From NCBI GenBank assembly GCA_965178125.1, contig OZ237755.1, forward strand, positions 186,001-250,000: 64,000 nucleotides of DNA. Reading direction: 5' to 3'. This stretch comes from Bilabrum cf. latius (taxonomy: Eukaryota). Below, in pieces: positions 13,333-54,726 of the stretch. Made by a program: the position numbers and the translations under genes. Each line of letters opens with the position of its first letter. The first letter of the stretch is position 1. The notes below the pieces were generated by a model that saw only the letters and a program-made list of their open reading frames with translations, was not told the origin of the DNA and did no database searches.

Positions 13333-15867
13333 ATGAAATGTGTTATGCTTGGTGTTTTAGCACTTCTGGGCCTCTCAAAAGCACGTCAAGTGCCTCTGTA
13401 CAGGCAGGCAGGGGCACCGATCGAGGACAGGATAAGCGATCTTTTAAATAAAATGAACTTGACGGAGAAAATCGCACAGCTTGAGCATCCGTGGAAACTT
13501 GGCACGAATAATACACAAGAGTACATTCAGTAGTACCCCACTGGATTAGGTGCTGCATACATCATGTGGGTGGGTGAGGAGTCAACAGCGACTGGAACGA
13601 ATTTCAGTGCCAGGGCAGAACAGATCAACAATATGCAAGAGTGGTACCTGCAGAATTCCAGGCTTGGCATCCCCGTTTCTATCGTTGAAGAAACCCTCCA
13701 TAGCGGCTCGTACCACGGAACGATTTTCCCCATGCCCTGTGGTCTCGGAGCTTCTTGGAATTCGAGCCTGCTTTCGAAGGTTGGAGCCGTCATCGGGGCC
13801 GAGGCACGGGCAGGCGGTGCCGACAGGGGCTTTTCCCCTGAAATAAATGTCGCAACTGACCCTAGATTCGGACGAACGGAGGAAAACTTCGGAGAGGACC
13901 CCGCTTTGGTGGCCACTCTGGGTGCCGCGATGGCCCTGGCCATGCAAGGCGGCGCAGAGGGCCCCTCGGGCTACCTGCCCGACCCCCAGATACACGTCAC
14001 CTGCGAGGCGAAGCATGCTGCCGCCTATGCGCAGGGCGGACGGGATGCCTACCCCGCTGACGTGGCCCCGCAGACCCTGTTCGACATCTACCTGCGGCCC
14101 TGGCGCGACTTCCTCGCCAAATCGGGAGGCCGCGGTCTGATGGCCTCGCACAACTCTGTGAACAACATGCCCGCGCACGGCAACCACTGGCTGCTGAATC
14201 AGACCCTCAGGGAGCTCTTCGACGCCCCGGGGATCTTGATCGCCTCCGATGACAGCGACATCGGGCAGCTGACCGGCTTCGGAATCGTGCCCGATACCCA
14301 AGCCGCTGCTGTGCTTGCGGTCGAGGCGGGCATGGATCAGGATCTGCACGCGGAGGCATTCCCAATGCTGGAGGATGCATTCAAGCAGGGACAGGTGGGC
14401 ATCGAGCCGATCGACCGCGCAGTCAGCAACGTGCTGCGGCAGAAATTTGCCGCCGGACTGTTCGATGGCGCGTGGCGGGTGAACGCCAGCGCGATGTAGA
14501 GCCAGCTCGCGAGCCCAGAGCACCTGCAGGTGTCGCTCGAGGCCGCCAGGCAGGGCATCACTCTGCTGCAGAACAACAACGGTGCGCTACCCCTCTCGAT
14601 CGACGAGCTCAAGGGCAAGACCGTCGCCGTCATCGGGCCGAATGCGGGCTGCTTCGATGACCCCTCGAGCGACAGCTGCCAGGCCGCCTCCAACTAGCTG
14701 GGAGGTTACACGAACGGGGGGGCGGCAGTGACCACAGTCCTGGCCGCCATTCACGCCGCTGGAAATGTCAGCGGGTTCCAGGTCGTTTATTCGCAGGGTG
14801 CCGAGACGGATGCCACTGTGCTCAACAGCAGCATGCTGGATGCAGCCGTGTCGGTGGCCATGAAGGCGGACGTGGTGATCGCTGTCGTAGGAGACAGTGC
14901 CGAGGGGTACGGGCACGGCACGTGCGCCGAGGGCATCGACAGGGACTCGCTCGACCTGCCGGGCACTCAGCTTGATCTGCTGAGCGCGGTGGCAGGCAAC
15001 ATCTCGATGAGGCAGGCTATGGACCAGTCTGCATCCTCCACCTCCCCTGTCTTGGCTGTGACACTCATCCATGGCCGGCCCGTGACCTTTGGTGAGGGCT
15101 TACAGAGCCGGTTTGGGCCTCGCAACGACCTGCTCGAAGCGCTTCCTGCGGTGCTTTCTGCGTGGCGGCCGGGGGCGCTGGGCGGGAGTGCCGTCTGGGA
15201 CGTCCTGACCGGCGCTTACAACCCCTCGGGGCGACTGGCGCAAGGATGGCCCCGCACGGTGGGACAGGTGCGTCAGAGCAACCCGTGGTATCAGCTCAAG
15301 CATACCCCGAACAAGGACTACTCGCTCGGTGCCAAGTACGCCCCTCTCTTCCCCTTCGGGCATGGGCTCTCCTACAGCCAATTCGGGCTGCACGACGTCA
15401 AGATCCTATCGGGCGACGATAGCCCTGCCAGCGTGGCAGATGTCCGTGGGCTGGAACCAGCCCGGAATGTACCCAATGCGTACCGTGTGTCGGCTCGATA
15501 CGTGCGCGAGGCAGCAGCAGCAGTTCGATCCGGCGACTCTGCCGGTCTTTTCTCGGTGCAGGCGCAGGCCGTGGTGACCCAGGGACCCGACGGCGACCTG
15601 GTGGTGCAGGCGTACTACTCTCAGGACCTGTCCAGCAGGGTGCGGTTCGGGCAGATGCTCTTGGGCTTCGAAAAGGTCAGTTTGCAGGCGGGGTAGCCGG
15701 GGGTTCCAGTGACAATTGGCCCCATCACGGCAGACGCGCTGGCATACTACCACCCGGACGAGGGCGACTACGTGCTCGAGGCCGGTAACTACACCGTGAC
15801 TGTGGCCCAGAGCTCAGATCTCCACGGCGCCCCCGAATCGGTCAAGGTGTTCGTGCCCGCCCCGTGA
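13333..15867 (+). CDS. Secreted glycoside hydrolase family 3 (beta-glucosidase/xylosidase-like), 844 aa, 4 TAG
   Basis: Signal-like MKCVMLGVLALLGLSKA, then DLLNKMNLTEKIAQL, SRLGIP...EETLH, TIFP..CGLGASWN, DPRFGRTEENFGEDP, KH, MASHN, IASD, GITLLQN...LPL, NPSGRL, PLFPFGHGLSYS and an Fn3-like tail. TAG at 13531, 14497, 14695 and 15694; ends TGA. Confidence 0.93.
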
Positions 15868-22000: not shown

Positions 22001-25000
22001 TCGTATGCTCATACCTGGTGGATCTCTCACGCTGACGCTTCCTGCTCGTGAGTCTAGCTTGCTCTACGACTCCACGGTGTCGCCCGATTCGGCATATTCT
22101 TCCATTGGCTGCGCATCAGCATCCGAGGGAGAGAGTGTATCTGCGTCGTCCTGATGGGAACCAGAGGGCTTGGACTATGTGTGTATCCCGTCCTCTCCAG
22201 CGGGTGTTGCGCTGTCATGCTCTGCACTATCGTTGCAAACTTCAGCAACGGGACCCAACGCACCGCCGTTCAGGTCAGTCACGTGGCTGTGTTTCCGCTG
22301 CAACTGCCCGAACGGGCCACTCGCTTGCCTCAGATCTTTGGTTCTCAGCCGAGGAGACCCGTGGGCCGACTGTCTCCTGGACAATCTTCGGTCCTCCTCA
22401 AAAGCCTCAAGGTCAATGGATGCCATGGAGCCCGGCCGAGATTCGGGGAGGCCGGCTCCGAACCGCCGGCGATCCAGCTCTGCCTGCGAGGCGCGAGCCG
22501 CAGCAGCCATGTAGGCAGGGCTGCTGGCTGCGGCCGCAGCCGTGCCCTTCCCGCTGATCCCCCGGATGTTGGGTGCCGCGACTGAAGCTGGCCTTGGGGG
22601 GCCGTCCTTTGTTCTGTGCAGTCGGATCACGTGCCTGACAGGGGCCTCGTCGATGGTCGAATGCGATGAGCTAGGGGGCCGGGAGGAAGGCAGAGGATGC
22701 GGGGCAGCTTGGCTGTCCCGCGAGCTCTAGTCAGACGTACCTGTCCTCCCCCCCCCTCTGCGTCGGTCGGAGTTGCCAGCAACGTCCGTTCGCTCCATCC
22801 ATCCGCTGGGCACGCGCGGGGGGGGCCTCCTCTTCGGCTCTACCGAGTCTCCCTCCACCGAGGCCAGCGGCCTGTTGCCTCCGTACTGAGGGCTTGTCAC
22901 GGGACTCTCCCCCCACGGTCCCCTGCCACGCGCGCCCCCGTGTCTCGCACCTCTGCCTGCGCCCTTCCGTTGCCTCGCGATCCTCGCCTCCACGCCGCCG
23001 TCACCCACCTCGGTCAGCACGAACGTCGCCACGTCGCCGCCGTCGCCGCCCGTGTCCTTGCTCGTCTTGCCGTCGGGGAAGCTGCCCTTCCTCAAGGCGC
23101 TGCCAATCGCGTCATCATCACGGACTTCATCCTCGTTGTTTTCTGGCACCGGGTCTGTGTCTTTGGTGCCGACTCCGCCCGAGCTACCGCTGCGGCTGCC
23201 AGGTGTCTTGGTACCACTGGCAGACTTGGCTGCTGCACCGGTGCCGGTATTCACCGCATGCTTGAGGGCTGGCGGAGATCTTCTTGGCTTCAGGTGGACC
23301 ACAGCCAGCGGTTCAGGCGAGACGGACCGCTCTGACCTGAGTCGAAGTTGAGCCATTGAGCTCTGGACGGCGACCCCCACGGTAGCCGCTGGCTTGCTCT
23401 TGGGATGCTCTCCACCAGCAGCAACCCGCAGTGGTTTGCGAACCGGCGTGCCTGGCTGCGACTCCACATCGATATCGATTGCATGCGCCTCAACCGCTGC
23501 ACCCTTCCCAGCAGCAGCAGCAGCTCGGTTCTCCGCATCATCGAGCTCCGGTGCTCCAGACGCCAGGCTCTGCTTCCCAGATGGCAGACCGGGCAGAACC
23601 CCATCAGCGGGTACAGGCACAGGTAGTGGCAGAGCAAACGACATGGCACCTCCCGGTGGTGCGGCGTGCCTCGACCTCGGGCTCGGCACTGGGGGCGGCT
23701 GGGCAGGGAGGGCAGCCTCCAGGGGACCTGGTGTGGGATCGAGCTTCTTCTAGTTAGTCTCTTCCTGCTGACGATGCAGCTGCTCCAATGTTTCTTCGGG
23801 TTCGTGCGATTCGCTCGCGTTTGTAAGCAGGCTGGAGCCGGGCCTGCCTGCGGCATTCCACGGCTACGGAGCCTTTGCAAACGGGCTGTTTGCTGCAGAG
23901 CGCGGAAGGGGCGGGTCGGCGTGCTGTTGCTTTCTCTCCGACTCTTGGCTCTGGCCATGAGACGCGGGTCCTTTCATCGGTCCAGCAGCTGCAGCGCCAG
24001 GGCTACGGCTCGCAGGACCACTGCCCTGCTTGCTCGGCTTGCCTCCAGCACCCGCGGGCAGCCTTGGAGCCCTCCTTCGCGGACTGGGGCCCTTCTAGCC
24101 TACGGGGACGGGCGATGGTGGTGTGGTTGTCGGGCCCCCGGGATCGGATGATACTTGACCGGCCACTTGTGGGTCTGCCTGGCCTGGGCTAGCTCGACCC
24201 ATGCCGGGAGGAGAGTTCGAGTGCGAGTCCGACTGTCCAGCAGCTATGTTTGGTGAGCCATTCTGGCTCCCGCCGGAGCTTTGCACGCCCTGCTAGGCAG
24301 CCACGCCGCTGCCCGTCTGTGCTCCATCGAAGCCCGTGGAGTCCCTTGGAGGGGACAGCCCGGCTGCCTGCACGCCGCTCGGAGTAGAGGCAGCTACCTG
24401 AGCACTCGTGTCGCTAGCTTTCGGCAGCTTGCCCATCGCTGCTCTTGATGCGATCCTCGGCGGCTGCGGCGGGGGCTGCAGGTCAATGGGAGGGGGCATC
24501 TGCCGGCCCAGCATGAGCCCCAGTAGGGCCCTCCTCGATGCGGTCCTGTCCTCGGGGGGGTCCCTGGCGCTGGCCACTGCAGCGTCCGGGTGCGATGGAT
24601 TCTGGACGGTTGCTGCGTTACCGCCACCTCTCGTCGGCGATGTGGCGGCTTTAGTGGCATCGTTGCTGTACTCAATGGCGAAAGGGTCCGGCTCTGCCGC
24701 TGCAGGCCTATGGCTCGCGGCGGGGCCCAGCATTGCCAGTACCTGGGTAGGCAATGCAGCGTCACCGCCGCTATTCGAGCTGCTTGAAGACTTTTTGGCC
24801 CAGGGCAGCTGTTCACTTGGGGATGGAATCGACTTGCCCTCTTCGCGCACCGTAGTAGGCGCGCCCACCGCTACCTTTTCTCCGTCTTCCTCCTCCTCGC
24901 TTTCCGCCTGGGCCAGGAACTCCGCCTCCTCTTTGTCCACACCCGCGGGCACAACGACAAGCTGTCCGGACGCTCCATCGGCCGCCCGATTATTCGAAGT

Positions 25001-28000
25001 TCCCTTTGAGACTCGATCGGAGACTCTCTCCCAGCTCGATTGCAACGCGGACAGCACATCAGCAGTCTCGGGCGACTTTCCTTCCCGCTCACCCCGAGCA
25101 CTGGACAATTCGCCGACTGCTCTGCTAGCGTGACTGCTGGCTGCCCTCAGGTTCAAGTCGGCGGGCTGGTCTACCTTCGCCGTTGCATGCGACGCAGAGG
25201 GCGTATCGCCGGCACGCCTCACTGCAACAGACCCTGCATCCTGGGACGCCCCCGCTGCATCTGCTCCGAACCGCCGGTTAAGCATGCTGAGTGCAAGTGA
25301 CTTAGGCCTGCCTCTCAAATGGGCTGGCTTGCCGCCCGCATCCTGCGATGGAGCCGCGTCACCGAGCAATGGCCGGTCCTCGGTCGCAGAATCCGATTGC
25401 ATCGCATGCTGCTCCAGTTGACCGCCCTTTCCTGCTTCAGCCTCCTTCCCTTCTTGGTGCCAACCCACGCCGGACCCACTCAGGCCTTCCTGCCCCAGCG
25501 CAGCGCCCTTGCCTGAATGGGCAACGAGAGCACCAGATCCACTGGGCGCACCACCACCAGCAACGTGACCCATCCACGGAGACCCCGGTGATCCAGGAGA
25601 GCCCATGGCCCGTCGATCGCGCCGCATGCTCCCCCGCTGAGGCTGCGAGGAGGGCGACCCATTGAGGATGCCCATCACGGCGGCCAGCGGCGACTGGTGC
25701 TTCCGTCTGCCACTCCCCGTGCTAGCTCGGCGCACCCCGCTGCCTGCCGCCGCAGATCCGTTGGAAAGTGCGAGCGCAAGCTGACCCCCGCTGACCCTTG
25801 CCCTCTCCTCCTCCTCATGCGCCGCAGCTCGATGCACCAGGTCTTCGTCCCCACTCTCCACACCGCCGTCCGAATAGGTCCGCGCGCGATCGCCAGGGCC
25901 GCTGCCCCCGACACCGCTGCTGCTGGCGCTGCTGCTGACGCTGGCATAGTCGCCTCTCAACTCGTCACCCTCTCCCGACTCGGACCTGATACTCGGCAGC
26001 ACCTGCATGCCGGGGCCGCCCTCCCCCATCGCCCCCCTCTGCCCCTGCCCCTGTCTGTGCCTGTGCCTATGCCTCTGTGCTTGCCTCTATGCCTGCCTCG
26101 CCCGCTTCCTCTCCCTCCTCTCCTCCGCCTTGTGGTAGGATCCAGACTTGTACAGCGCCTCGGCTGCCTCGAGCACACGCTCGGCCCTGGCCATGATTAC
26201 CCCCGTCTCGTCCTCGGTCAGGCCATCGGCCGCCTCAACCAGCTGCACCAGCTGCCGCACCGCCTCCTCCTCCTCCACGGACAACTCGCCCGCTCCGCGA
26301 ATGGCCGCGTATCCGTCAACCAGCGGATGCGCCGCGGCCGGCCAGCGGTTCTTTCTCTGCACACTGGGCACGACCGGCTCGTCCTGAGACTGCCCGGACC
26401 CGGGCAGGAGCCCCCACCCGAGCAGCAGCGCCACCCAGCCCGGCCCCAGCGCCAGTCGCTGGCTCACGTCAACCTTGGCCTCCAGCACCTCGGCCAGGAC
26501 GGGCTCCACCAGCAGCGCCAGGCCCCTCTTCTCCTCCCGCAAGAACCTCGAGTGGGCCTCAGGCCCGTCCCACGGCTTGGGCCGCAGAGGTAGCGCAAGC
26601 ACGCTGGGCGCATCGCCACCGGACCGTTTCCAGAACTTGGAGCTGGAGGACACCGCTAGCGCCTGCATTGCATCTCTCGAGGCGCGGGAGGCTGCCGAAG
26701 ACGTAGCCCCCGAGACCGTGCTTGCGTTGCCGGGGGAGCGCCAGGGGCCTCCCTGCCCAGCCCCTCCCCCCAACTCGGGGTCATCGACCGACTGCTCCTG
26801 CCCCTCTAGCTGCCCATGCTCCTACTCACTGCCTTGCTTCCGCTCTGCCTGCATGTATGCCACAAGCACCTGCTGCGGGGTCATGCCTGCCTGCCTTGCC
26901 ACTGCGTCTGGGTTCAAACCCCTACCCTTGCCCCCACTGCCACCACCCGGCGAGACCCGTCGGCCGCCCCCTCCCTGCTCCCCATGTCGCTGTCCGTGCC
27001 CTGGCGAGGACATGGCCGCCGCAGGTGACGCGACAAGGGACCCGGCAGGGTTCACCTGCGTGTGCCATTGCCCCGCCTCCTCCTGGCTGCCGTGTCCAGG
27101 CGAGCCCGAGCCCGAGCTGGCCTACTTTCCCACCGCAGCTGGGCTGCGTGGCTGCTTGGTCCCGCGGTTCCTGCGCCCCGACCTGCCGCCAACGCCACGC
27201 GGCAGCAACCCCTTGAGCCTGGACAAAGAGGGCGAGGCCGGGGCGCCACTGCGAGGACCAGCTACCACCGCCGCCTGCGATCTGGCAGTCCAACCGCCCT
27301 CCTTGTTCTCTGGATCTGCTTCCTCGAGTCCTTCATCCTCCCTCGATGCCCCTTGTTCTCTGCCCTTGCCCTAGCCCTCACCAGCCCGCGGGTTACTCCC
27401 CAGCGCCTCGATCGCCTCGTCATCTACAAAGGTGGACAGGGTCTGCTCGCCGATGCGGCGTCTCGCGGCTGCCTTGGCCGAGCCACGGGGGGTCCCACTG
27501 GAGCCCAATGCTAGAGACGGGTCTCCTGCAGCTTCGTCCAGCTGCAAGGGAGGAGGGGCCTAGCCCCTCGGCACCCCCTGCTTGTGCGTGTCACCATCTG
27601 TTCCAATCGATCCCCCACGCCAGGGGGAGGGCTCGCTCGCTCTCATAGGAGACGCGGATGCCATGTGCCTGTCTCCCACGTTCTGGTCCTCCTCCTACTC
27701 GGAATCGGAATCAACGCGAGTGACACGTACAGCCGCATACCCCTTTCCGCCAAGATCCCGATCGTTTGGCCCCCCTACCACGCTATAGCTCACCCCACTC
27801 CCATTGCTATTGCCGTGCTGGCCATGCCCTGCCCCCGGTGCCACCTGCCCCAGCCCATTTGCCTCTTCCTCCCCATCCTCATCCTCCTCCTCATCCAGGT
27901 CGATGTGTCCATCCCCCTCATCGTATTCATCCCTACCGCTGGTACTCTGGCTCCGAGATCCTTGCCTTGGCAGCTCCGGACCCCTCCCGGTCGCCCCTCC

Positions 28001-28984
28001 CAGCCCCATGCCCATGCCCACGCCCACGCCCATGCCCATGCCCATAGCCCCCCCCACGCCAGAGGAGGCAGCACCGGAGCCACCAGCATCGCTGGTGGAA
28101 TCCCGTCCCCTATCCCTGTCCATGTTCCTCTCTCTCTCAGTTACGGACTACCCCCCCTTACTAGACGCTCTCGACCCCAACCTCCTGCGGTGCGGAGCGA
28201 CTGCTTGCTGCTGCTATGCGCTGGCGCCAGCTCCTGCCCGCAGCAGACTGCCGCCGTGACTTCCTGCTCTAGCTGAGGACACGCTCGGGCGGCGGCGGTG
28301 CGGAGCAAGGTCTGTGATAATCACTCCAGCGCCCGCTCTTGCTCCCGCACCTCCAGGGAGAGAGACCGATGCGCTGGCGACACTGCGGTTGGTGTCATCG
28401 GCTGCTGCCTCTGCGTCTGCGCGTCCAGGGGTCGAGGGCGGGGCTCCTGTGGCAGATTCGGGGATAGACACAACGGATCGTGCTGGTTCTCTGGAGGGAC
28501 CAGCGCTTCTGAGGCTGCGTAGGCTCCGCTAGCGCCCTGGTTGCGTCCTCCTGCCGCCGTCTAGTGGCGTCCCTGATCCAGCAGCCGCGGTCCTGGTACG
28601 CAGCGGAGGAATCGACACGTCTTCCCGCATGCTGTTAACAAAAGCTACTGAAGTGCGCCTGAGCGAAAGCAACCATTGCATCATGTCTTGCTTAGTCTCG
28701 GTCCGCAGAGATTGGAATCCTTGCTCATCGCCACTATCCGCAGCCTCTGGCGGATGGACTTCGAAGTAACCAGGATAACCCCTTGGGTGGCTTATTGCTA
28801 TAACACGTGCTCCAACAAGGTCAATCTCGGTGTGCGGGGAGCCCTATGCTGCTGCTAGCGAGCCGCTGTCATCAAACAAGAGTAACTGTGATTCTGTCGC
28901 CACAGCGTAGCACTTTTTCCAGTACCTGTGGAACATGCCATCCAACTTGATCTCCAATTTCCCCTATCGAATAATGTCAACCAT
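16016..28984 (-). CDS. Giant intronless protein (~4322 aa): N-terminal PH domain, long low-complexity region, C-terminal SAM-like domains (~28 TAG)
   Basis: Sixteen minus-strand ORF-track fragments share one frame. All but the last end in TAG, and I found no TAA/TGA in the gaps; the frame ends TAA at 16016. The N-terminus MVDIIR*GKLEIK..WKKCYAVAT..LLLF..IDLVGARV..FEV..LRTETKQDMMQWLLSLR is PH-like. DDDVGDWLASIGCYHCADEFARAGF..LTRRHLEIIGI is SAM-like. Confidence 0.75.
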
Positions 28985-29083
28985 GGTTAGGTATAGCAAA
29001 GCGCCTTCTATGGCTGCTGAAATTGCGAGCTATTGCTGGAGTCTAGCGAGTCGTTGGGAGGGTAAGGTGCTGTTTCGAGATGC

Positions 29084-33535
<4,452 letters not shown>

Positions 33536-35776: not shown

Positions 35777-37117
35777 ATGGAGTCTGAGTCAAGAGCAGAT
35801 TTTGAAGCGCAATTGGACTCGGTTCAGCCGCTGGTAGTTGTATTATAGGCTTTGTCTTCTGGTTTGAAGGAGCAAAATGCAACGCTGATGGCAGGAAAAG
35901 AGAGTGAGCAAGTGCTCGACCGTACGGCAGGGCCTTCTGGACAGGTCAGCGTCAGTACAACAATTACCCCTTGCTTTTGTTAAACGCAGAATTGAGAATA
36001 TGCGTCGAAGAAAGCTCGCGAGCCTCGTAGGCCGTGGCGGTTCTCTAGGTGAGTGGTGCGTTCCAGCCTAGGCTGCAACGAAATAGGCATCTCGTCCAAA
36101 GCTTCCCACTCGCCGCATGCTCCCTCCCGCCAGAAGCGCGCGCAGAGATCCTTTTTCCAAACTTACTACGCTTGCGATGTTCCTGACGACGTGGAAGAAA
36201 TTGATTCTGCGAAGTTTGCCGTGAATTTGAAAGCTCTCATCGAATGCCTCCAAATTTTTGGGTCCTCTAGCCTTGAACGGACCAGGCTTACGATGGCTTA
36301 TTCAGATCGTGACAAGCTGTTTCGACTCAGCCTGCAAGATGGCAGCGTTCTCACGCAATGCGAGTTCACCACGATGGAGAGCGGCCCGGACGTCTCTTTT
36401 CCCGACGACTTTAAGGAGCAGGGGCAGCGGCATATCGTCCAATGCCGCAGCAAAGCTCTTAGAGACGCTATTTCAGACGTGATTGACACCCCTGGAGCCA
36501 GCACTCTTACTTTGTCCGTGATTCCAGACCGTCGACTGGTGCGGATCGCAGCGGACGGGGACGACGGGCTGTGCCGCGTGGACCTTTCCACGACTGACAG
36601 CTCTCTGTTCCTCGGGTCTGGTCTCCACGAAGACGCTTCGACCTATTCGTACCGCCTCCGCCTCATGGCCGAGGCCTTCAAGGGCACGTCCTTCGCGCAC
36701 GTGACCACGATCCGGCAGGGGAACGCGGGCATGGCTGCCGTCCTTCACAGGCTTCACGTGGCTGCCCCCGTGGGCATGGGGGCGGATGCGGCGGAGGGGC
36801 TTGCATCTGCATGCACCATCGGGTACTTTGTGTGCGCGGACGAGGCGGATGACGACAGCGATGCGGGAGGGGCGGTGGCAGGGGCAGGGGGGAAGGCGGT
36901 TGGTGCGGGGAGTGCAATGGCCGGGAGCATAGGGGGTGCTGGTGCGGGGCCTGGCGCTGCAGTCGAAGGAGAGAGGCAAGGACAAGCGATGGGCATGGAT
37001 GAAGATGCAGACGAGGAGGACGAGGAAGAGGAGGCTGGCGAGCAGATGGCAAGAAGGGGTGCAAGGGGGAGGGGCGGGGCTTCCATCGGTCGCAAGAGGA
37101 GCAGAGGCCCGGGCTGA
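35777..37117 (+). CDS. RAD1: Checkpoint clamp (9-1-1) subunit RAD1; exons 35777-35903, 35990-36048, 36146-37117; 3 TAG
   Basis: Spliced protein: FEAQLDSVQPLVVVL*AL..KLRICVEESSRAS*AVAVL*RSFFQTY..FAVNLKALIECLQIFG..L.MAY....LFRLSLQDGSVLTQCEFTTME, matching the Rad1/Rec1/Rad17 family. TAG at 35846, 36028 and 36046; ends TGA. Confidence 0.85.
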
Positions 37118-37283: not shown

Positions 37284-38432
37284 TCAGAATTCAGTCGGCA
37301 CTTTCACAAAGGTGATGTTCCCGTAGAGGTGAGAGGGGCACCCCTCGCCCCCGTGCTCGTAGATGAGGCCCAGCCACTCCCTGTTCCCGTCCAGCCCCTG
37401 CATGGGCGAGAGGCTGCTGTAGGCGGACGGCCCCGGGTCCACCACCAGCGCGCGGGGCCAGGTCCTGCCCCCGTCCAGCGAGGCCCGGACCGTCATGTTG
37501 CGGCGGGCCGCTGTGCTCGAGGGGTTCGAGAAGTACAACCGCCCTGCCCCGGTTCCGCTGCGCGGCGCCGCTACGGACCCCTCGCACTCCGAGGTGGGCA
37601 GGTCGTGGCTGAACTGGATCGCCGACCAGGTGGCACCCCCGTCAGCCGAGGTGGCATAGGCTCTGCACCGGCAGGGGGCCTGGATCTGGTCCGTGATGCG
37701 CAGGGAGAGGAAGAGCGTCCCGTCCGCAAGTTCCGCCAGGGAGGACTCATCCACGCCCCGGAGCCTGGCCGGTGACAGCGTCCAGGTGCTGCCCATGTCG
37801 TCGCTGTACCAGATCACGTCCGTGTTGCCTGGCAGCGGATCCGGCGTGCTGCCGTTCGACCCGAGCAGGGACGATCGATTCAGGACAGAGTAGCTACCGC
37901 TCATCACGATCCTGCCTCTGTGCGGCGATTGGGGAGAATGCAGCTGCACGCCGCGGCCAGGGCCCGGCCGCAGGCCGTTGCCATACGGCGCAATCTGTCG
38001 AGTCACCGGGCGCGGCAAACTCCAGTGCATGCCGTTGTCGCTTGATATCACTTGCTCAACCAAGCATGGTCGCGACAGGCAGTAAGTTCTATTTACCAGG
38101 TACTGCATCATATGGAATCGCTTCGCTCCATCGAGCACTAGGACCGTGTCCGGGTTCCACAGAGTACCGTTCCTACTTCCAAGGAACTGAAGGTCAGTCC
38201 AGGTCCGACCTTCATCCTCTGAACGCTTGATTGCAAGCTGTTTCTTGGTTTCATCGTCGCAGTTGGCTATGCGGGCTTCTGCAACTGCAAGCAAGCTTCC
38301 TGGGCTGGTGCCTTGCACCAAGGACGGAATGCGGTAGCAGGCGACTCCCCCCTCGCCCGCATAAAAGACAGTGCTAGTGAGAAGACTGGACGAGACAAGC
38401 GTTGCACCAGCGATCGCGACAGCAAGCAGCAT
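37284..38432 (-). CDS. Sialidase/neuraminidase-like (GH33), signal peptide, Asp-boxes
   Basis: Signal MLLAVAIAGATLVSSSLL; YRIP motif; Asp boxes SEDEGRTW, SSDNGMHW, SDDMGSTW, SADGGATW and SLDGGRTW; GPSAYSSL. No TAG; ends TGA. Confidence 0.9.
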   Translation of the reverse strand: MLLAVAIAGATLVSSSLLTSTVFYAGEGGVACYRIPSLVQGTSPGSLLAVAEARIANCDDETKKQLAIKRSEDEGRTWTDLQFLGSRNGTLWNPDTVLVLDGAKRFHMMQYLVNRTYCLSRPCLVEQVISSDNGMHWSLPRPVTRQIAPYGNGLRPGPGRGVQLHSPQSPHRGRIVMSGSYSVLNRSSLLGSNGSTPDPLPGNTDVIWYSDDMGSTWTLSPARLRGVDESSLAELADGTLFLSLRITDQIQAPCRCRAYATSADGGATWSAIQFSHDLPTSECEGSVAAPRSGTGAGRLYFSNPSSTAARRNMTVRASLDGGRTWPRALVVDPGPSAYSSLSPMQGLDGNREWLGLIYEHGGEGCPSHLYGNITFVKVPTEF

Positions 38433-38873
38433 CGAAGATTCTATCTTGGATCGCTCGATCGCCGAGAATTTATCTTCATCCTGCCACGTGCGAAGGCCAT
38501 CCTGCTTTCCGAGTCGCAGCATCCGGGTGTGTTGTGTCATGCCGCACCCACAGATGTCACGCCACGTCACCCGACTAACAGTTCAGCAGTGGTCCCATCC
38601 GCAGTGTAGAAGAAGGCCCCACGAGCGCCTATCTTGCCGTTGGTCGAACCGGATGCGCTCCAAGTCGCCCAGAGGCACTTGCTCGCCCAGAGGCACCTAC
38701 TCGCCCAGCAGTGCAGCGTTGCCGCACCATGTCACGAAATAACAGCCTCAGTGTGGCCCTTGCGAGTCGCATAGTCACACGATCGTACTAGCAAGCCGAA
38801 TGAGGAACCGCAAAAACAGGATTTCAGCGGCGCAAGTGCTGCTAGCATGCCAGTGGTAGTGGTCCTCTGGTCC

Positions 38874-45075: not shown

Positions 45076-46001
45076 TCAGGGCCCCCCTCCCTTGGCTGCC
45101 TCGCTGGAGGAGGAAGACGAGGAGCCCGAGCCTGACGCTGCTGCCGCTGCCCGCCTCCTCGTCACCCTGCCGGTCGGTGCACTGGCGGCCTTGCCGCTGC
45201 CAGCCGCCGCAGACCCGAACACGGGCGCCTCCTCGTCCCCTGCGCCCGCCCCAGCTGCCATCGGAGCAGAGGCGGCCGAGGCAGCCCCCGAGCCGCTACC
45301 GAACGCGTCATCGAAGCTGAACGCACTCGACCCCGCGCCCTTTGAGCTGCCCTCTCCATCCATGGCGGCCTCCTTGGCCTTCTGGGTGGCCTTCTGCTCG
45401 TGCAAGGACTTGACGAAGCGCTGCCTCTCGCTGGGAGCCATCATATGCAGCGACTGCGCGATTTCGATCCTATCCTTGAGCTGCTCCTGCTGCTCTCGCC
45501 CTGCCATGCGTTTAACCCAGAATCGGCGCTCCCTAGCTTCCTTGATTTCCTAAACGCGCTGCATTACACGCAGCGACGCTCCAACCAGGTGCCTATCGTA
45601 CTTGACAGGGGCATTTCTTCGCTTCTCGAATTCGAACGACGAATCGATTGCCATTTCCTTGCCATTCGCTCTCCTATAAGCCTTTGTCCAACGCACATGC
45701 CTGGGGTTGCGCTTCTTCTTGAAGGCCTTGCTGCACTTGGGTCTGCAGAACCGGAACGCCTGCGATAGATGCGGTCGAATCGCAGCAAAATTTGGCTCAT
45801 GCAAGTTCGTTCAGATCGCATACCAAAGATAACCCCATTTTGAATTAGCGAGCACGCTGCTTAGCGCCAGTGATAACTGCGTGCGTTGCAGTTGCTGCGT
45901 TTGCAGTTGGGTGTGCTCACTTTGCTATCGTTGCGCACAAACATTGTACCGTGGCCCGGGTAGCACGGAGCCCCGCAGAAGTCACAGGGAACAATACGCA
46001 T
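45076..46001 (-). CDS. RLP24: Ribosome biogenesis protein RLP24 (RSL24D1); exons 45921-46001, 45076-45759; 1 TAG
   Basis: [100 protein letters not shown] at 45550; ends TGA. Confidence 0.93.
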
Positions 46002-46197
46002 CCTAACGCAACCGCTTGCTTACGCCAATGCACGTAGATCAAGCGGTGCAATTCCTCTGCTTGCCGGAACGAGAGTACAACCACGGAAGGCGCCGCGCAA
46101 ACTGCGGAACCACCAAAGTGCAACTGCTCGACAAAGCCAGTTACAAGCGAATGCTCGTCATGAATGAAAAAAACATGTCGGCGCTGAATACTACGAC

Positions 46198-49100
46198 TTA
46201 GTCCATGTCAGATGCAAGGCTCTGCTGCGACGCCGAGGCAGACCCCCGGCCCGTGGCGTGGCCCACCTCCGCCGCCGCCGCCTTGGCAGCCGCCCGCCCC
46301 GCCCTCCCGCCCTGGGTGGTCGAGTTCACAGAATCGCTCCGAGCCAGACCCCGAGGGGGCCCGCCAGTGGCAGCCGCCGCGGCGCTCTGCCTCCTCCGCC
46401 TCCCCAGCGCACCGCCCCTGGACACAGCCTTGCCCTTGACAACCGGCCGGGCGCTCGTGCGGCCCGCAGCATCCAAAGACTCAACGGCCTGCATGCCCAG
46501 CACCGACCGCTCCAGCTCTGCCTGCGCGTCCTCGATCGACGAGGAGCCCATCATCCCGTGGACGGCCGCAGCGGAAGAGGACGACGACGAGGACGAGGCA
46601 GCGTGCTGGCCCTGCCCCTGCCCCACGCCCACGCCCATGGCTCCACCGGCGATCGAGTGCCGGAACACCCTCGACTGGCGCTTGCCCCCGGCACCCCCAG
46701 TGGTGCCCGTGCCCTTGGCCCTCGCCGAGTAGAGGCTCACCGCCCTGGGCCCCACGGACTTGGCCATGTCCGGCAACGAGTCGAAGATGTCGTCCTCGTC
46801 TTCGTCCTCGTCCTCATCCTCACTGTCCATGCCCCCAGCGCGGTTCTTCTGCCTCGCAGCAGCCATGCGCCCGGCAATGTCCACCAGCGAGGTGTTCAGC
46901 CCGGCCCCCGCCCTCAAGGCATCAGGAGACTCATCGAGGAGGCCGCCCGCGGACGTGGGCTGGCCCATGCCCTGAGACTGGGACCACTCCCCCGCAGCCG
47001 CGGCCTTCGATCCCTCCTCCTCCTCCTCCTCCCTGTCCAGGGCAGCCACCATGGCTGCTGGGTCGGGGTCACTCAGCGAGGCAGACAGCGCAGGCTCGCC
47101 GCCCTTGTCTTCATCTTCATCCTCATCTTCATCCTCCACTGCCCCTGCCACAGCTTTGGCTCTCTTGCGCTCTGGTGCACCATTGGCAGCCTCCTCGCCA
47201 GTGGCCTCCTCGCGACCAGATTGCTAAGCACCTGCTTCCTCGCCCATGCCCGCCTCCGGGGCCTTGCGCTTCCTGCCCCTGCCCCTGCCCCCAGCCCTGT
47301 AAGGAGACGTTCGGCGGGAGCTTGCTTCCTGCTCCTCCGAGGCATCGCCAGCCCGGGTTGGTGCCGACGCAGCAGCAGCATCATCGGCAGCAGTGGCACC
47401 GGAGCCGGACTACGCCGCGGCAGCGGGAACGGTGAGAGCCTGTCCAACGCTCTGCCGCCCTCGGCCCTTGCTGCCCGCCGAGCTGACCACTTCCACGTCC
47501 ACGCTCTCGTCGATGGCCAGCGCGGCGTCCTCCCCGCCCGCCTCCGCGTCTACCTCCTCCTGCACGTCGAGGTCGTCCAGCTCCAGGCGGGGACTGCCCG
47601 CAGGAGACAGTGGACTCGAAGCTGCAGCAGCAGCAGCAGCAGCAGCGGCAGTGCCTCTCGCCCGGCGAGGAGCTCGGCGGGCCCTGGGGGCGGGTGACGG
47701 CGTGCCCGCCGCCGCAACGTCCTCCTCTTCCTCTTCCTCGTCCTCTTCTTTGTGCTCCTGTTCCCCGTCTGATTCTGGCTCCGAGTCGTCTTCCATCGCG
47801 GCGCGGCGCCTGCTGGACCGCCGCGTCGGCTTGCGCTGGTTCTTCGTTCCCTTGGCCTTGCCTTTGCGCTTTCCATTCCCCTTGGATTTGGACATACTCT
47901 GCTTGGCAGCCTTAGAGTGAGATGATGAGGCGGCAGATGCACGCAGCGCCTCATTCACGTCCTCCAGGAGCGCCGCGGCGTCCTCCGTTGTTCCCTGCAC
48001 CGCAGGCGCGGCCTGCAGCGCCCCGGCCTCGCCGCCCCCAGCCGAGGGTGCCCGGTAGTCGGCGATTCCGTCGTCTGCGCCGCCCCGACCGGTCCACCGG
48101 AGCATGAACTAACCCTTGTGCGCGAAGCTGGAAGGAACGTCATCATCGTCGTCCTGCTGCATCCGGAATCGCCTGGAGCCCGCGTCCACGGGGTCGGCCG
48201 GTCGGTCGGCTGCCCCCGGGTGGCACAGCCTCACTGCACCCGCATTGGCCAGCATGAGCGACGCCAGGAAGCACCGACACACCTCGTGCACGCTCGACCC
48301 AGGCCCATCGTTCACTCCTAATTCGTCCTGCTCTTCTTCTTCTTCCTTGCTCTCTCCCGCTGCCGACCCCTTCGACACCACGGCCCCGAAGTCCACAGCC
48401 ACCACGCGCCCGCCCTCGGGTGCCTGCTCCTCCCCGCCCGCGAGCAGGGCAACGGCGGGATCCGCCAGCGCAGCCTCCTCGTCCGCCTCGTCCTGCTCCA
48501 CGCCCAGAGCCCTCATCCTGGCCTGCTCCTCCCGGGCCTCTTGTTCCCCGAGGAGCAGGCCCTCCCTGGCCGCCCCCTCGCTCAGCCTCCCGACGATGTC
48601 CCGGCCGTACCCGTGGATGTCGAAGGCGGGCCGCCTCTTCTCCTCCTCCAGCACGGGAACGACGCGCTCCTCCCACGCAGCCACGCGCAGCGCCAGATCC
48701 GACCGACGGACGTATTTCTCTGCCCCACGCTGGAACTCGGCCACGTGGCGCCGGACCAGTGCCTCGTAGCCCTCGCCCTCGCCCTCGCCAGCAGCCCCGT
48801 CCCCGGCCCCACCGATGCCCATGCCCACCAGGTCGCCAGCCCCGAGTGCAGCCTCGTCAGCATCCCCAGAGCCGAAACCTGCGCCCACGTCGTCCTCGAA
48901 TCCGCCACCAACCCCGCCCATGTCAGCGTCCCCGAAACCCCCCCCATAGTCGTCATAGTCGTCATCTCCCCCGTCAGCGTATGCCATGCCGGGGTCCTCC
49001 CCGTCCTCGCCCCCTGCACCATGGCCCTGGTCCTGGCCAGCCTCACCGGCCAGGGCGGCCTTCATCCTCGCGCGGGCAGCCAGCTTGCGGTCCTGCTCGA

Positions 49101-50929
49101 AGACACCCGCCAGCTCGGGGAACAGCGGCGCCGCGCGCGTCACAGACACCGAGGTTCCGCTGCAGTCGGCCCCGCCCAGAGCCAGGATGCCAGAGGTCCG
49201 TAGCGCCGCCGCCGCCCGCGCCCCCTTGTTCCCTGGCAGGATGCCCCCTCCGCCCGCGGCCCCTGCCGACGCACCCAGCAGAATGTCCGCGTCCTCGTGG
49301 GCCCTCCCAGCGGCCCCGTGCCTCGCGATCATGGAGGGGTTCTTGGGCACGTGGAAGGTCTTGCCCCGCCGCAGCTTGCGCTCCCTGCCCTGGGGGGCGT
49401 CCACGTCGAGAATGGCCCATGGGTCCGAAGCACGGGCGGCCTTGCGGGCGCGCCGTGGCCGGCCCGCCCCGGCCCCTGCAGCAGCGGCACCCCCCTGCTG
49501 CGTCTGCGAGCCAGAGGCAGCGGCTGCTGCTGCGGCCCATGGATCTTCGGACTGCTGCCCCGAGAACGGGTCCGATCCGGAGCCGAAACCTGCACCCACA
49601 TCGTCCTCGAATCCGCCCCCGATCCCGCCCATGTCGGCATCCCCGAAGCCCCCCCCGAACCCACCATCCAGGTCCATGTCGTTGTCCTCGCCCCCGCCCG
49701 TGCTGGAGGACGCTGTTCCCTGGGCCCCCTCTCCCGCGGCCTGCACCGCGGAGTCTCTCAGGAGGGCCGAGGGGCCCATGGCCAGGCCGCCCAGCGAGGC
49801 ATCCGCTGCGCCAGCAGCCGCCGCACCGCCGGGCACGAACGCCCCGCTGCTGCCGCTGCCACCCAGGTGCGCCCCCGCTCCCGCTCCCATCAACATCATC
49901 GCTTCGTCGTCATCGAAGGCCCCCGGCGCATCGCCCAGAGAGGCCAGCGGGTCCGCGTCCCCTCCCGCCAGCAGCAGGGCGCCCGTGCCCTCGTCCACCT
50001 GGCAGCTGCCCAGCTGGAAGGCCTCCGCCCCGCGGGCGTGGTCTGTGCGCTTGGCCGATAGACGGGATAGGGGAGTCCTGCAATTGGTTTTGGAGAATAG
50101 AAAAGAACGAAACGGATGCACGGGTGGGGGAGATAGTGTCGGGCTGCGATCTACAAGTGGCTCCTGGATCCAGCGGGCGGGTTGCACCGAGATTCTGTGT
50201 GCCAGCCATCCATCTCACTTCTGCCTGCGGTTGCTGTGAGTGGCCTCCACAGCTCGCCTCGGGGTATTGGCCGGCAGCTTGCGCCCGGAAGCCACCAGAG
50301 ACACGGCTCGCATGGCGCCGCGCGGCGCTCGCATCTGGACGTTCTTGCCCTCGCGGACGATGTCATCGAGCAGCAGGAACTCTTCCTCGACTGTGGCTTC
50401 AACGTCTGCATCTTGGCCATTCTTGTCATCGATTGAGCTGTTTTTCTGCTTCCGATTGCGCTTGGCGAAGATCATGTCAAGAGCTCCGTAGATCAGCTTG
50501 TAGAGCAGCTCAACTTTCTTGCTGTACACGCATGCCGAGTTCTAAATGAGCATGGCAGCCTCGGCGAAGTTTACTCCTTCTTCTCCATCAAAGCTGATCG
50601 TGATTGTGTCTGTGCACGGAAGCAGAAGGCAGGTTCAGACAATCAAGCCGGGTATTGTGTCTCTCTGCCTTTGCTTCATCCAATCGAGTGGTGCAGCATT
50701 CTTACCGAGCGTATCAATATACTCTTCGAGTTCATTTGCAATGGAGATTCCCCATACGTCAGTCAGATTCCTGCATTGCAAAGAGGTGGAGCTGGACAGG
50801 TGCGACGGGTGGATCACACCGCGAGGTTGGGCATCAATCTTGTAGTATTCGGAGTATGTCGCACTTAATCGGCTCAAGAAGGTGCTTGTATTTTGCATGC
50901 CTGTCTTGCGTTTCCTCATCAAGCGCCAT
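46198..50929 (-). CDS. NCAPH2: Condensin II subunit CAP-H2 with long C-terminal extension (~1466 aa); exons 50865-50929, 50706-50770, 50219-50609, 46198-50077; 4 TAG
   Basis: N-terminus [59 protein letters not shown]. C-domain YEALVRRHV..LALRVAAWEERVVPVLEEEKRRPAFDIHGYG..HEVCRCFLASLMLANAGAV. TAG at 50542, 48109, 47410 and 47224; ends TAA. Confidence 0.88.
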
Positions 50930-51088
50930 GTCGGCAGTTGAGACCTGTATTGGTTGCACCAAGCTCCAAACGGCTTGGAACCGGTTGGTTGCGTGTACTT
51001 CTGAATAATTGATTTTCAACCCGAACTGCAGCCAGCTTTCAGGAATGGCGACCCTTCCAGAGTAAATGAATGGATTTCTATTGTCTTT

Positions 51089-54000
51089 TCATGATTGCCC
51101 TCGCATGGCAGCAGCAAGGACCGCATCCCCGTCGTCCTCTTCGTCCAGCGCATCCAAGTCTTCTTCGGCTGCCGTCCCAGCCCCAGCACCGCCTGAAGCC
51201 GCGGTAGGCCGCCCGGAAGCCACGCTCGCCGTGCCCGTAACATCCACATCTCCCTTGAAAGCGCTCTGCAGCAGCTCCTCGTCCGCCAGCTCCTACCAGA
51301 CCCCTAGCACCGCAGCACTGCCCCTCTGCAGCTCCAGAGCGCCCATGCCAGCACCCTCCGCATCTTCCACCGAGTTGCTGCGGGCGCGCCTGCCGCCCGC
51401 CCCGGCTTTCACCCGGCCGCTCATGGTCACCTTCACTTCGGCCCACTCCCGGAGGAAGAGGGGAAGAAGACCCCCTGGACCCGAGACGGCGGCAGCTGCC
51501 GCGCGCCCCACCCCCACCCCTGCCCCTGCCCCTGCCCCTGCCCACTCCTCTTCGTCCTCCACCCCACTCCCAGCGGCTTCGGTCTGCACAGTCCCCGCCT
51601 CCCCGCTCCGGAGCGCACCCAGAGCCGACACGCCGATCTCGCTGTTCCCCAGGTGCGCCAGGGCCCGCACGGCCAGGTGGCATATCCTCAGCTCGCGCGA
51701 GCTCCAATCAGCCGGGAGCCCCCTGATCCTAAGCAGCGCGTCCATCACGGGGGCGCGAGACCTGTTCCCTGGACTGCTGTTGTTCCCTGAGGCGGAAGCA
51801 GGGGCCTCTAATGCGCCCCTACCTGGATGGGAAGCACCCGCCTGCCCGAAGGAATGCGTGAGGCCGTGCGATGCTCCTGCCCCGGCGGACACCTCCTCTG
51901 CCTCTGCCCCTGCCCCTGCCTGCTCCGCTTGCTCCCTCGATTGGGCCTGCTGGGCTAGGGCACGCCTGCGAGCAGCACCCGCAGCCACAGCCACCGCGGC
52001 CAGATCCAGGTGCAGTCCCATTTGCACCGCTGCTTCGTGCGCGCCGGGTGGGGGGCTTGTTCCCTGGTCTCGCTGCCGGAGCGCCCTTTCGATCTGTTCG
52101 CAGGCCCTTTCAGTCTGTGCAGGGTCCCCGCTGCCCAGCATCAGCTGCAGCGGGGACAGGTCAGTGACTTCCACCGGTGCACCGCCACGATCGGCACAGG
52201 GTGGGGTTGCTTCCTCTCCCTAATCGCCACTATTGCCACCCTTTCCTCCTTGGTGGCCTGGCCCTTGCACCTGCCCCCACACCTGCCTTGCCGCGGATGG
52301 GTCCCACCCGGAGCCGGCGCCGGTCAGGGGCCCCAGTTTTCCTGCCATAGCATCGGCGGGCGCGCTGGCGAACCCCTTGAGCGAACCTTCGCTGTCCTGG
52401 AAGAGGCTCCCCGGGTGCGTGGCCCAGGTGCTCAGCGCAGTGGCCTTGGACCTGGACGAATCCCTTGAGCTCGAGCGGGGACCGTCCCCCAGGGTGGGGG
52501 GCAGGGCGGACCCCCCTGAGGGGACATCACCCCAGGACCCGTCCGCTTGCGAACTCGTCACACCGGCTCCGTGGACACCTGGCTCCTCCGGGAGAGACGG
52601 CAGCAGCATGCCACTAGGAGAGCGAGCGCCCGATCCGGCCGACCCGAAGCTGCCCGCTGGGGGCCGCCCGCTGCCGCCACCACCCACGCCTTGGCCATGC
52701 GCACCGCCGCGCTGCGGGCTGCTGTCAGCTTGATCCAGCAGCACCCATCCACCGTCGATATCAATGGAACTAACACCAGGAGCTGCATCGCCCGCTTTGG
52801 CAAGCGGTGCGATGGGCTGCACCGGGGTTGTCCTAGACCGCACGAGCATCCCGCGACCACCCCTCCCACGGCCCGCGATCCCTCCAGACCCAGATCCAGG
52901 GGCAGCACCCAGCGTGGCATCGGGCGACATCGCAGCGCCCGCGGCAGAGCCAACGGACCCGTTCCCGGACACACCCCCACTGGCGGAGCCTGCCCCGCCC
53001 TCTGCCTGTGCCCTGGCGGCGTGTTCCCTGGCCCGAGGGCTGCCCATGCTGTCGTCTTCCCTTACAGGACCCGAAGGGGGCACCAGCCCCAGGCCCTCGC
53101 CCAGCCCGCCGTACCCATCACCGGCGGCCCCCGACTCGGCCCGCTTGCGCTGCATGTCTTCATCGGCGGCGCGCTGCAGCCTTCGGCCCGCGTCTGGGCG
53201 GCTGATGCTCTGCAGCACGTCCACGTCGGAGTCCACGGAGCAGAAGAGGCCCCGCTGCGGGTCGTCGGACATGATGACGCGGGCCTGTGGCAGCAGAGGG
53301 GGCGCCACCGAGTGCTGCAGGGGGCCCCTGCCCCTGCCTGATCCGATCCTCCCACCAGGCGGACCCACCAGCCCGCGCCGGGATGCACTGGCGCGATCGT
53401 ACGCGTCTTCATCGCTACTTGTGCTCCCGTCGCTGCCGTACCCGCCCCCGACACCGCCACCGCCACCGCCACCGCCACCGCCACCGCCACCGCCACCGCC
53501 ACCGCCACCGCCACCGCTCCGACTGGCATGCCGCCGCCCCACTGCCTCCAGAGCGGCCACCACCCCGCTGCGGGGGAGCAGTGGAGAGTCCGCCAGCGCG
53601 TCCAGGGAATCGGGGCGCACGATGCGAACGCCCAGCTTGCCTAATCGACCCGGGAGAGCTCTCATGACCCGGCCAAACGCCAACGACCCGCGCTCGCTCC
53701 GCCTGGTCGAGTAGCAGTCGAGCAAGTGATGGTTCGCCTGCCTGTCCACCGTCCCGACACGCACGTTGAACTCTGCGTACGAGCCATCTCCCCCTAGCAT
53801 GCAACGAAAGGCCCAATTCTATTCATCGAACCGGGATAGAGCGCCAATGTCATCGAACACGCGGTACAAACCAGACGCGAGCTGCTTTGACGGGGCAAAG
53901 GCGAACAGTCCCTGCGCAATAGTGCCTTTCTCGAGAGCACGGGTCTAAGCGCGCACTGGGGGTGCGCCAGCTACAGCTAGTTGCATGTCTGCGGAACAAG

Positions 54001-54726
54001 CGGGCAAAGTACGCGATGAAGACAACACCCGTGCGACTGGTACACCTCTACCGGAATACCTGTCTTTGTGCGCCGGGTCAATGCACCAAAAACGAGACCA
54101 TGCGCGAGTAAACCGCACATCTCGAAACATATAGACATATGGTCAAACCGAGGCGGCAACGCATCGCGAATTAGAAGGGAATTCTGGGCGCGGGTATGTA
54201 TGTGCTCACCAAAGCTGCGCTGGTCCACCAGCTTTGCTAGCGGCCTAGGCACACCGGTGCTCTCTAGGACTACATCGGAGAAGTCCAGCAGTATTTTCTA
54301 ACTGCTTCCAGCCGATGCTAGCTTCTATCGTTCGACGTACCTCGTCTGTGCCGCGAGCACGCCATGTGCTGAAGCATGCGAGCCCGAGGCGGTCACACTC
54401 GAGCCCGACGGAAGTCGCGTAGGAGCAGCTGTGACTGACCCACTATGCTGTGAAGAAATATCACTGGGTGAGGCACTGCTCCTGGGACTGCCCTAGCCGC
54501 GTGAACTGGCGATAGTTGGAGCCTCCTGCGGTACCGTGGGCATCGCATCCAGCCCTACCAGGGTATCGCTGTGCCTCAACGGGTGTCGTTGTTGCCTGCG
54601 TTCATGTGTAACCTATCTTTGAGCCTCCATTGCGAAATACTCCGCAGTATCTGTTGGGCACACGGAGAAAATCTGGGCGATTCCGATGCAATCGTCGCAC
54701 TTTCCGCGGATTTCCCCGGACTCCAT
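51089..54726 (-). CDS. Hypothetical protein; probable exons 54060-54726, 51089-53988; ~8 TAG
   Basis: ORFs 52220..53800 and 51293..52174 are joined by TAG in one frame, ending TGA at 51089. A 71-nt GT-AG intron (53989-54059) links an upstream TAG-containing frame. No family recognised. Confidence 0.5.
53453..53516 (-). repeat. (GGCGGT)n microsatellite encoding poly-Gly
   Basis: About 10 tandem ccgcca units on the + strand, within the hypothetical CDS. Confidence 0.85.

Follow-up and report, generated by a model that had tools for sequence, protein, structure and literature searches.

The locus examined here raises the question of how a TAG triplet can lie within the N-terminal kleisin motif of a condensin II subunit (CAP-H2) gene and, if it is a codon, which amino acid it specifies. 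The preliminary description of this DNA placed the triplet about 65 codons into the protein and proposed that, through its aligned residue, Gln, it identifies the amino acid. Retranslation of the window (i.e. the whole 64-kb stretch of DNA analysed) confirmed that minus-strand positions 50542–50544 read TAG within an uninterrupted CAP-H2 motif, with the frame open on both sides. The triplet is preceded by NFAEAAMLI and represents codon 66 of 1,466 in the gene model, consistent with its proposed position. Its assignment to the invariant Gln of the motif draws on the sequence, the Pfam family CNDH2_N, the human structure chain 9f5w_H, the family column and transcript contigs.

With the TAG masked as X, exon 3 of this gene matched Pfam CNDH2_N (PF06278) with an E value of 1.1e-24 and 87 bits (cut-off 32.3), and human condensin II subunit H2 (9f5w_H) with an E value of 1.8e-18, the X being placed opposite Q. 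Exon 3, with TAG translated as Q, was then searched against 1.84 billion representative proteins, yielding 636 matches at E≤0.001, including 144 at E≤1e-10. A family alignment of the best 150 of these 636 relatives and the window sequence, with X at the TAG position, was used in place of the Pfam consensus. Among these 150, the TAG column contained Gln in 149 and a gap in one, and is thus essentially invariant, as had been proposed. The surrounding columns were similarly uniform, with F in 147, A in 146, A in 146 and I in 141 before the TAG, and, from the TAG onwards, Q in 149, G in 144, S in 142 and, further along, K in 150, V in 148 and E in 148. The residue following the TAG is Asn in the window, where 144 of the 150 relatives carry Gly, a departure from the family motif quoted in the preliminary description. 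The match of the flanks is far beyond chance, as they represent contiguous halves of a near-invariant motif, are separated by just a single codon, and share one frame that is open on either side. The single gap in the TAG column is due to P0123, a protein of 104 amino acids that is 99% identical and starts at query residue 28; from this start position, it is probably a gene call on another public assembly that was restarted just after the CAP-H2 TAG.

The CAP-H2 coding sequence was modelled as four minus-strand exons comprising 1,466 codons, with TAG at codons 66, 830, 1063 and 1125 and with no internal TAA or TGA. Exon 1 (50865–50929) starts with an ATG at 50927–50929 and was assigned from this start codon, the reading phase and the GT donor that follows position 50865; its boundary was deduced from N-terminus homology and GT..AG ends, the 9f5w_H match spanning exon 3 only. 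Exon 2 (50706–50770) was likewise deduced, the frame being kept between the flanking introns, i.e. intron 1 (50771–50864; GTGCGA..ATGCAG, 94 nt) and intron 2 (50610–50705; GTAAGA..GCACAG, 96 nt), both of which are predicted. Exon 3 (50219–50609), which encodes the CNDH2_N motif and contains the TAG, is separated from exon 4 by intron 3 (50078–50218; GTGAGA...TTGCAG, 141 nt, with one ambiguous G), which was observed in a transcript contig. All three introns are of the GT..AG type. Exon 4 (46198–50077) encodes the CNDH2_C domain as well as a long, low-complexity extension at the C-terminus, includes the in-frame TAGs at 48109–48111, 47410–47412 and 47224–47226, and ends with a TAA at 46198–46200, as supported by Pfam, codon usage and contigs.

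In addition to the CNDH2_N domain of the condensin II kleisin at the N-terminus, exon 4 was shown to contain the CNDH2_C winged helix (PF16858; E=4.7e-24, 85 bits, cut-off 32), although only profile positions 2–66 of 130 were matched in one stretch owing to an insertion. No middle-domain family was detected by Pfam in exon 4 at E≤0.001, and low-complexity sequence either takes the place of the middle region or masks it. The protein resembles human CAP-H2 (PDB 9f5w chain H) in its N-terminal kleisin motif, which aligns over residues 37–135, and in sharing the C-terminal winged helix. However, compared with the 640 residues of the human chain, the 1,466-codon window protein contains long Gly/Ala/acidic insertions and about 636 extra C-terminal codons past a TAG.

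Sequencing contigs were used to follow this gene into RNA. Four runs, all from a single sample, contained the stretch in full, and another study, filed under another organism code, contributed two runs with 47% and 26% of the words of the stretch; contigs of four runs were compared with positions 45900–51200 (5.3 kb). The RNA origin of the runs X5 and X6 is on record only as a guess; they were treated as transcript-bearing because their contigs are spliced. X5 contig 15 (760 nt) matched 50218–50609 and 49850–50076 without mismatch and skipped the intron at 50078–50218, and both this contig and X6 contig 23 left the genome at 50609, the acceptor that had been predicted beforehand from the protein alignment and that delimits exon 3. 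Both contigs span the TAG at 50542–50544 unchanged, and the spliced mRNA therefore carries UAG. The copy is thus transcribed and spliced with its TAG intact, which removes the possibility that it represents an untranscribed relic. Nor would the reading hinge on a CAG-bearing paralog, given how general in-frame TAG is in the window (see below). X5 contigs 10 and 11 were found to cross all three exon 4 TAGs unspliced. The X5 and X6 sequences are assembled contigs, and their 100% match to the genome may mean that they derive from the same strain as the assembly. Run X7 yielded low-complexity matches and two exact 151-nt contigs at 50866–51170, which stop short of the TAG.

These contigs also bear on the notion that the code is standard and that the triplet is restored to CAG in the RNA, as U-to-C editing might do. 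Across 50542–50544, neither X5 contig 15 nor X6 contig 23 contained any other letters, and the sole difference listed over the 5.3 kb compared was a C>G at 50374 in one X6 contig; RNA correction is accordingly considered exceedingly improbable.

Across the window, TAG alone among the stop codons is reassigned, and the CAP-H2 triplet exemplifies this pattern; it is not a peculiarity of this gene. Under the standard code, the longest stop-to-stop frame in the window comprises 1,331 codons; it reaches 4,423 codons when TAG is read through, compared with 1,436 when TGA and 1,331 when TAA is read through. Frames obtained by reading through TAG include those of 4,423 codons (30 TAGs), 1,489 (17), 1,429 (one), 1,348 (11), 1,338 (three), 1,308 (10), 1,017 (four) and 904 (seven). 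The 4,423-codon frame (minus strand, 16016–29287), which encodes PH and SAM domains, ends with TAA and lacks internal TAA or TGA, is the strongest single sign of TAG as a sense codon. The other two frames of the eleven long stretches contain 464 TGA and 62 TAA triplets (526 in total, ~1.8% per codon per frame), a rate that predicts ~80 TAA/TGA for the 4,423-codon frame, where none was observed. In total, the eleven long frames contain 98 in-frame TAGs in 14,388 codons, representing 14% of the 713 putative Gln codons. TAG accounts for 0.68% of in-frame codons and for 0.67% of those out of frame, and there is therefore no selection against in-frame TAG. Among the 17 frames supported by length or homology, 14 contain at least one TAG, the exceptions being those encoding RPL4, Rad1 and a BNR protein. 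A GC3-periodicity filter for coding frames was dropped, as it proved too noisy in GC-rich low-complexity DNA.

Given this distribution, a one-off CAP-H2 defect under the standard code, be it a nonsense mutation, a misassembly or a pseudogenised copy, has next to no credibility. A change from CAG to TAG would require just a single transition; however, such an event leaves the TAGs of the other long frames, including those of 4,423 and 1,489 codons, unaccounted for. Furthermore, the same CAP-H2 TAG is present in contigs of the four runs of one sample and of the two runs of the other study, splicing of the transcript is seen, the gene retains both of its CAP-H2 domains intact, and a relative (L001, see below) displays the same TAG habit in its GH3 gene. 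The condensin II kleisin gene is thus, with high confidence, intact, spliced and expressed, with the TAG at codon 66 serving as an ordinary Gln codon.

The reassignment does not extend to the other two stop codons. The 17 supported frames terminate with TGA in 13 cases and with TAA in four, with those encoding the SDR reductase, GH3 and RPL4 stopping at the same point as their homologs. As frames were defined as free of TAA and TGA, their lack of internal TAA/TGA is a partly circular observation, and frame length provides the independent argument. In the eleven long frames, A-ending codons represent 21% of CAR (CAA), 24% of GAR (GAA) and 23% of AAR (AAA), so that, were TAA a synonym of TAG, about 26 to 31 TAA would be expected beside the 98 TAGs; no internal TAA was found. 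A UAR-to-Gln code (NCBI table 6) was consequently rejected, given the absence of internal TAA and the four of 17 frames that end with it. Reading through TAA extends the frames that end with this codon by at most 53 codons. A code without dedicated stops (Condylostoma type) was also discarded, as frames are not lengthened when TGA or TAA is read through. TAA and TGA thus very probably remain terminators, with UAG as the sole reassigned codon.

To identify the amino acid, the family columns of further in-frame TAGs were examined. A FabG4-type short-chain reductase gene (plus strand, 3–2084) contains six TAGs and ends with TGA. Its TAG at 1968–1970 falls in an invariant Gln column, with Q in all five PDB alignments displayed and in 120 of 120 homologs. 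A second TAG, at 2043–2045, lies 12 codons before the TGA in a conserved C-terminal strand, where the homolog column (n=120) contains Q in 58, R in 27, E in 10, N in eight, S in seven, A in six, D in two and H in one; this TAG is predicted to be read as sense, because homology runs past it to the terminator. The columns of two N-domain TAGs favour other residues (V in 70 and L in 20 of 120; K in 103 and R in 15 of 120), and the remaining two TAGs, located in insertions that none of the 120 homologs shares, were excluded from the likelihood calculation. In a GH3 β-glucosidase gene identified by homology (plus strand, 13333–15867), which contains TAGs at 13531, 14497, 14695 and 15694 and ends with TGA, comparison with 120 homologs revealed one column with a Gln plurality (49/120) and three variable columns, with two favouring Ala or Gly. 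The UFD1 TAG falls in a variable column, with T in the PDB alignment, and the MICU1 TAGs are located within unaligned insertions. Log-odds summed over the nine usable columns were +11.5 bits for Gln, –7.0 for Lys, –7.7 for His, –17.3 for Ser, –20.7 for Glu and –30.1 for Leu; when the two invariant columns were omitted, Gln still led with +1.9 bits.

An independent comparison was provided by an ortholog. Scanning of metagenome contigs with the GH3 sequence yielded L001 (3,876 nt, 56% GC), which encodes a full-length GH3 ortholog with 584 of 842 aligned residues identical. Its GH3 frame consists of 887 codons with 10 TAGs and no TAA or TGA and ends with TGA at the same place as the window gene, and the other two frames contain 26 and 21 TAA and TGA triplets. 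Across the 14 TAG positions of the pair, seven TAGs were found opposite CAG or CAA and none opposite GAR or AAR, the other seven partners being GCA (twice), TCA, AGG, GGC, GAC and CTA. For the window gene, the TAGs at 14497 and 14695 correspond to CAG, and those at 13531 and 15694 to GCA. Ordinary Gln codons of the window gene face Gln in L001 in 24 of 43 cases, so that TAG pairs with Gln as ordinary Gln codons do and thus behaves as a Gln codon; at least seven such pairings in 14 would arise by chance, at a Gln background of 5.5%, with a probability of 4e-6. As a control, six standard-code metagenomic GH3 loci with a clean frame were shown to contain no in-frame TAG. These six are among the 11 GH3 loci identified besides L001; of the others, L006, with one in-frame TGA, was not classed as clean, and L002, L003, L005 and L011 are without a clean frame.

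Decoding of UAG as another amino acid, such as Glu, Lys, Leu or Ser, is very unlikely. UAG specifies Glu in peritrich ciliates and Blastocrithidia, and one GH3 TAG of the window is indeed opposite Glu in the three PDB chains shown; Lys, in turn, would suit the reductase column in which it occupies 103 of 120 positions. However, all 149 residues at the CAP-H2 column and all 120 at the invariant reductase column are Gln, the summed log-odds favour Gln over Lys, Glu and Leu, and Glu and Lys codons are absent among the partners of TAG in the GH3 pair. Glu at the TAG of the GH3 Fn3-like motif was itself set aside as saying little, as the column turns to Gly/Ala/Ser in the 120-sequence MAFFT alignment. 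The proposal that the CAP-H2 TAG identifies the amino acid as Gln is therefore supported not only by its own column but also by the second invariant Gln column, the TAG/CAR exchanges between orthologs and the nine-column likelihood.

Taken together, a nuclear code in which only UAG is reassigned, to Gln, with TAA and TGA retained as stops (the NCBI table 15 pattern), is strongly favoured, because TAG occurs in most genes, falls at invariant Gln columns, exchanges with CAG and CAA, and is kept in mRNA.

A further question is whether UAG might have retained a terminating role in some contexts. Context-dependent codes occur in Condylostoma and in karyorelict ciliates, and an ambiguous code of this kind, in which UAG would specify Gln inside genes and end translation close to the 3′ end of some mRNAs, would leave codon 66 as Gln. 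The exon 4 TAG at 48109–48111 is consistent with such dual use, as it is located about where CAP-H2 homologs end, 17 codons past the last conserved block. It also stands in a splice-donor-like context (AAG|GTTAGT), and four of the 17 frames have a TAG 12–22 codons before their TAA or TGA terminator. However, the 635 codons past this TAG score +0.31 bits per codon, compared with –0.37 and –0.25 in the other frames; coding-like usage was observed in every 300-nt slice (46201–48105); and no TAA or TGA is present, compared with seven and 14 in the other frames. An RNA contig moreover crosses this TAG unspliced. The number of TAGs near frame ends likewise represents no excess, as, at 0.68% of codons, about two of 17 frames would carry one in their last 25 codons by chance, and the reductase TAG located 12 codons from the end is sense by homology. 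No frame in this one window requires UAG as a terminator, and its one candidate site is followed by coding-like sequence, which is better explained if translation continues through the TAG into a long acidic/basic extension. McGowan et al. (2024) observed no dual use in phyllopharyngean ciliates with reassigned UAG (PMC11687900). We therefore regard an ambiguous code as improbable, and reassignment of UAG to Gln throughout as the preferred explanation.

By analogy with other UAG-reassigned eukaryotes (PMC5304391), UAG would be decoded by a cognate tRNA-Gln with a CUA anticodon, and eRF1 would no longer recognise UAG efficiently. Within the 64-kb window, no tRNA genes were detected by ARAGORN, no Rfam families were identified, and an eRF1 gene is absent.

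Codes of this type have been reported before. The decoupling of UAG from UAA was first shown by Panek et al. (2017), with UAG=Gln in Iotanema spirale and UAG=Leu in a rhizarian (PMC5304391). McGowan et al. (2024) added Hartmannula sinica and Trochilia petrani (Gln), reported TARA ciliates (Leu), and cite Protocruzia tuzeti (Gln) and Scotinosphaera (Ser) (PMC11687900); this 2024 survey lists four cases in which UAG alone became Gln, one of them in a fornicate and three in ciliates, and three in which UAG alone was given to other residues. Iotanema spirale (Metamonada, Fornicata) shares the code table deduced here, with UAG=Gln and with UAA and UGA as stops (PMC5304391). The window differs from this anaerobic fornicate, known from a transcriptome, in its 64% GC, its spliceosomal introns and its MICU1 homolog. 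The ciliates H. sinica, T. petrani and P. tuzeti are alike in UAG=Gln, in UAA as a stop and in most genes carrying the codon, and their code was also deduced from conserved Gln columns (PMC11687900); a contiguous 64 kb with at least 17 genes at 64% GC would nevertheless appear unlike ciliate macronuclear DNA. Table 6 codes (UAA and UAG=Gln), known from many ciliates, hexamitin diplomonads and ulvophycean green algae (Cocquyt et al. 2010, PMC2984419), are similar in that a stop is reassigned to Gln, presumably via a mutated tRNA-Gln anticodon, but different in that TAA is not sense in the window. The UAG-only codes of the rhizarian exLh and TARA phyllopharyngean MAGs (Leu) and of Scotinosphaera (Ser) likewise split UAG from UAA (PMC5304391; PMC11687900), yet differ in the amino acid, as reflected here by the strongly negative log-odds of Leu and Ser. 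In the full-text literature covered, which lies largely outside subscription journals, no GC-rich non-ciliate with UAG=Gln was found to be reported.

The gene content of the window points to a host of a different kind. At least 17 genes are present, including those encoding RPL4, Rad1, UFD1, MICU1, an adaptor mu-homology protein, a GT34 transferase and a BNR protein. RPL4 is most similar to its counterparts in plants, algae and stramenopiles (56–64% identity); apart from one metagenomic match at 91%, all others listed are at most 64% identical and are distributed over streptophytes, algae, stramenopiles and a ciliate, the latter being the sole named ciliate among the 120 matches listed and, at 56%, no closer than plants. 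The best named GH3 matches are protist transcriptomes at ~40%. The MICU1 homolog suggests that the host may possess classical mitochondria, and similarity of this kind, as distinct from a phylogeny, is consistent with a deep-branching protist that is probably neither a ciliate nor a fornicate. While the code type is already known, the lineage looks new. We tentatively advance, with slightly less than even confidence, the reading that the UAG-only-to-Gln code arose here independently and hitherto unrecognised, in a lineage that would be deep-branching, rich in GC, mitochondriate and outside ciliates and fornicates. This lineage would have at least two members, which are ~69% identical in GH3 and 91% in RPL4, a divergence from which the reassignment would be old and fixed, in a high-GC genome where, of the two UAR triplets, TAG is commoner than TAA.

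Few nuclear codes treat UAG and UAA differently, and a further origin, in an unrelated GC-rich lineage that has a relative in environmental data, would add to the evidence on how eRF1 and tRNA-Gln change when the two codons part, and on whether GC pressure favours the capture of UAG. The value of the CAP-H2 TAG accordingly lies in what it reveals about the code of the genome, not in CAP-H2 itself. In practical terms, table 15 has to be used when this genome and those of its relatives are annotated, as standard-code gene callers cut such genes apart, and all TAG-containing frames, i.e. 14 of the 17 supported, would be truncated. Judging from where it starts, right behind the CAP-H2 TAG, the public P0123 call is probably one of the resulting pieces.

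The GH3 enzyme encoded in the window (13333-15867, plus strand) has an ortholog on a 3,876-nt metagenome contig (L001, positions 787-3447), in which 10 in-frame TAG codons were identified. The GC content of this contig is markedly lower than that of the window (56% versus 64%). The presence of these codons in the ortholog indicates that, as judged from sequence, the same genetic code is used in a second organism, although its base composition differs.

A public protein related to the condensin II kleisin CAP-H2 (P0123; 104 aa) exhibited 99% identity to CAP-H2, with its first residue located five codons past the TAG at 50542-50544. This public gene call has the appearance of a truncated piece left when genes of Bilabrum cf. 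latius, or of a near-identical organism, were predicted under the standard code. Furthermore, CAP-H2 appears to carry an acidic/basic, low-complexity C-terminal extension of ~636 codons (46198-48111, minus strand). This region displayed coding-like codon usage and was spanned by transcript contigs. The extension starts with a TAG, positioned at the usual end point of the homologs.

No TAG was observed in RPL4 (4453-5826, plus strand), Rad1 (36053-37117, plus strand) or a BNR/sialidase-like gene (37284-38582, minus strand), a set of three that is too small for judging avoidance of this codon by highly expressed genes.

The best 120 matches to the FabG4-type two-domain reductase (3-2084, plus strand) were bacterial-type relatives only. 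The nearest relatives of the GH3 enzyme were metagenomic sequences and protist transcriptomes. Both genes may represent old gene transfers. The reductase also contains a large acidic insertion, which is missing from all homologs.

A frame of 1,429 codons (8855-13144, plus strand; ~79% GC) encodes a Gly/Arg/Ala-rich protein for which no Pfam match was obtained. It is made up of four tandem units, 99-100% alike and spaced at 984 nt, starting at 9148, 10132, 11116 and 12100. The hexanucleotide TGGCAC is repeated perfectly 37.7 times in tandem at 29839-30064, and within the 29066-33535 frame this array is translated into a Gly-Thr repeat run of ~75 residues. The minus-strand frame at 51089-54142 harbours a run of ~23 Gly codons with an adjoining dinucleotide-type repeat (53400-53560), for which the opposite and shifted frames give (Ala-Thr)n, (Arg-His)n or (Arg-Trp)n. 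The repeats at 53400-53560 are typical of the Bilabrum cf. latius genome, the coding DNA of which is microsatellite-rich.
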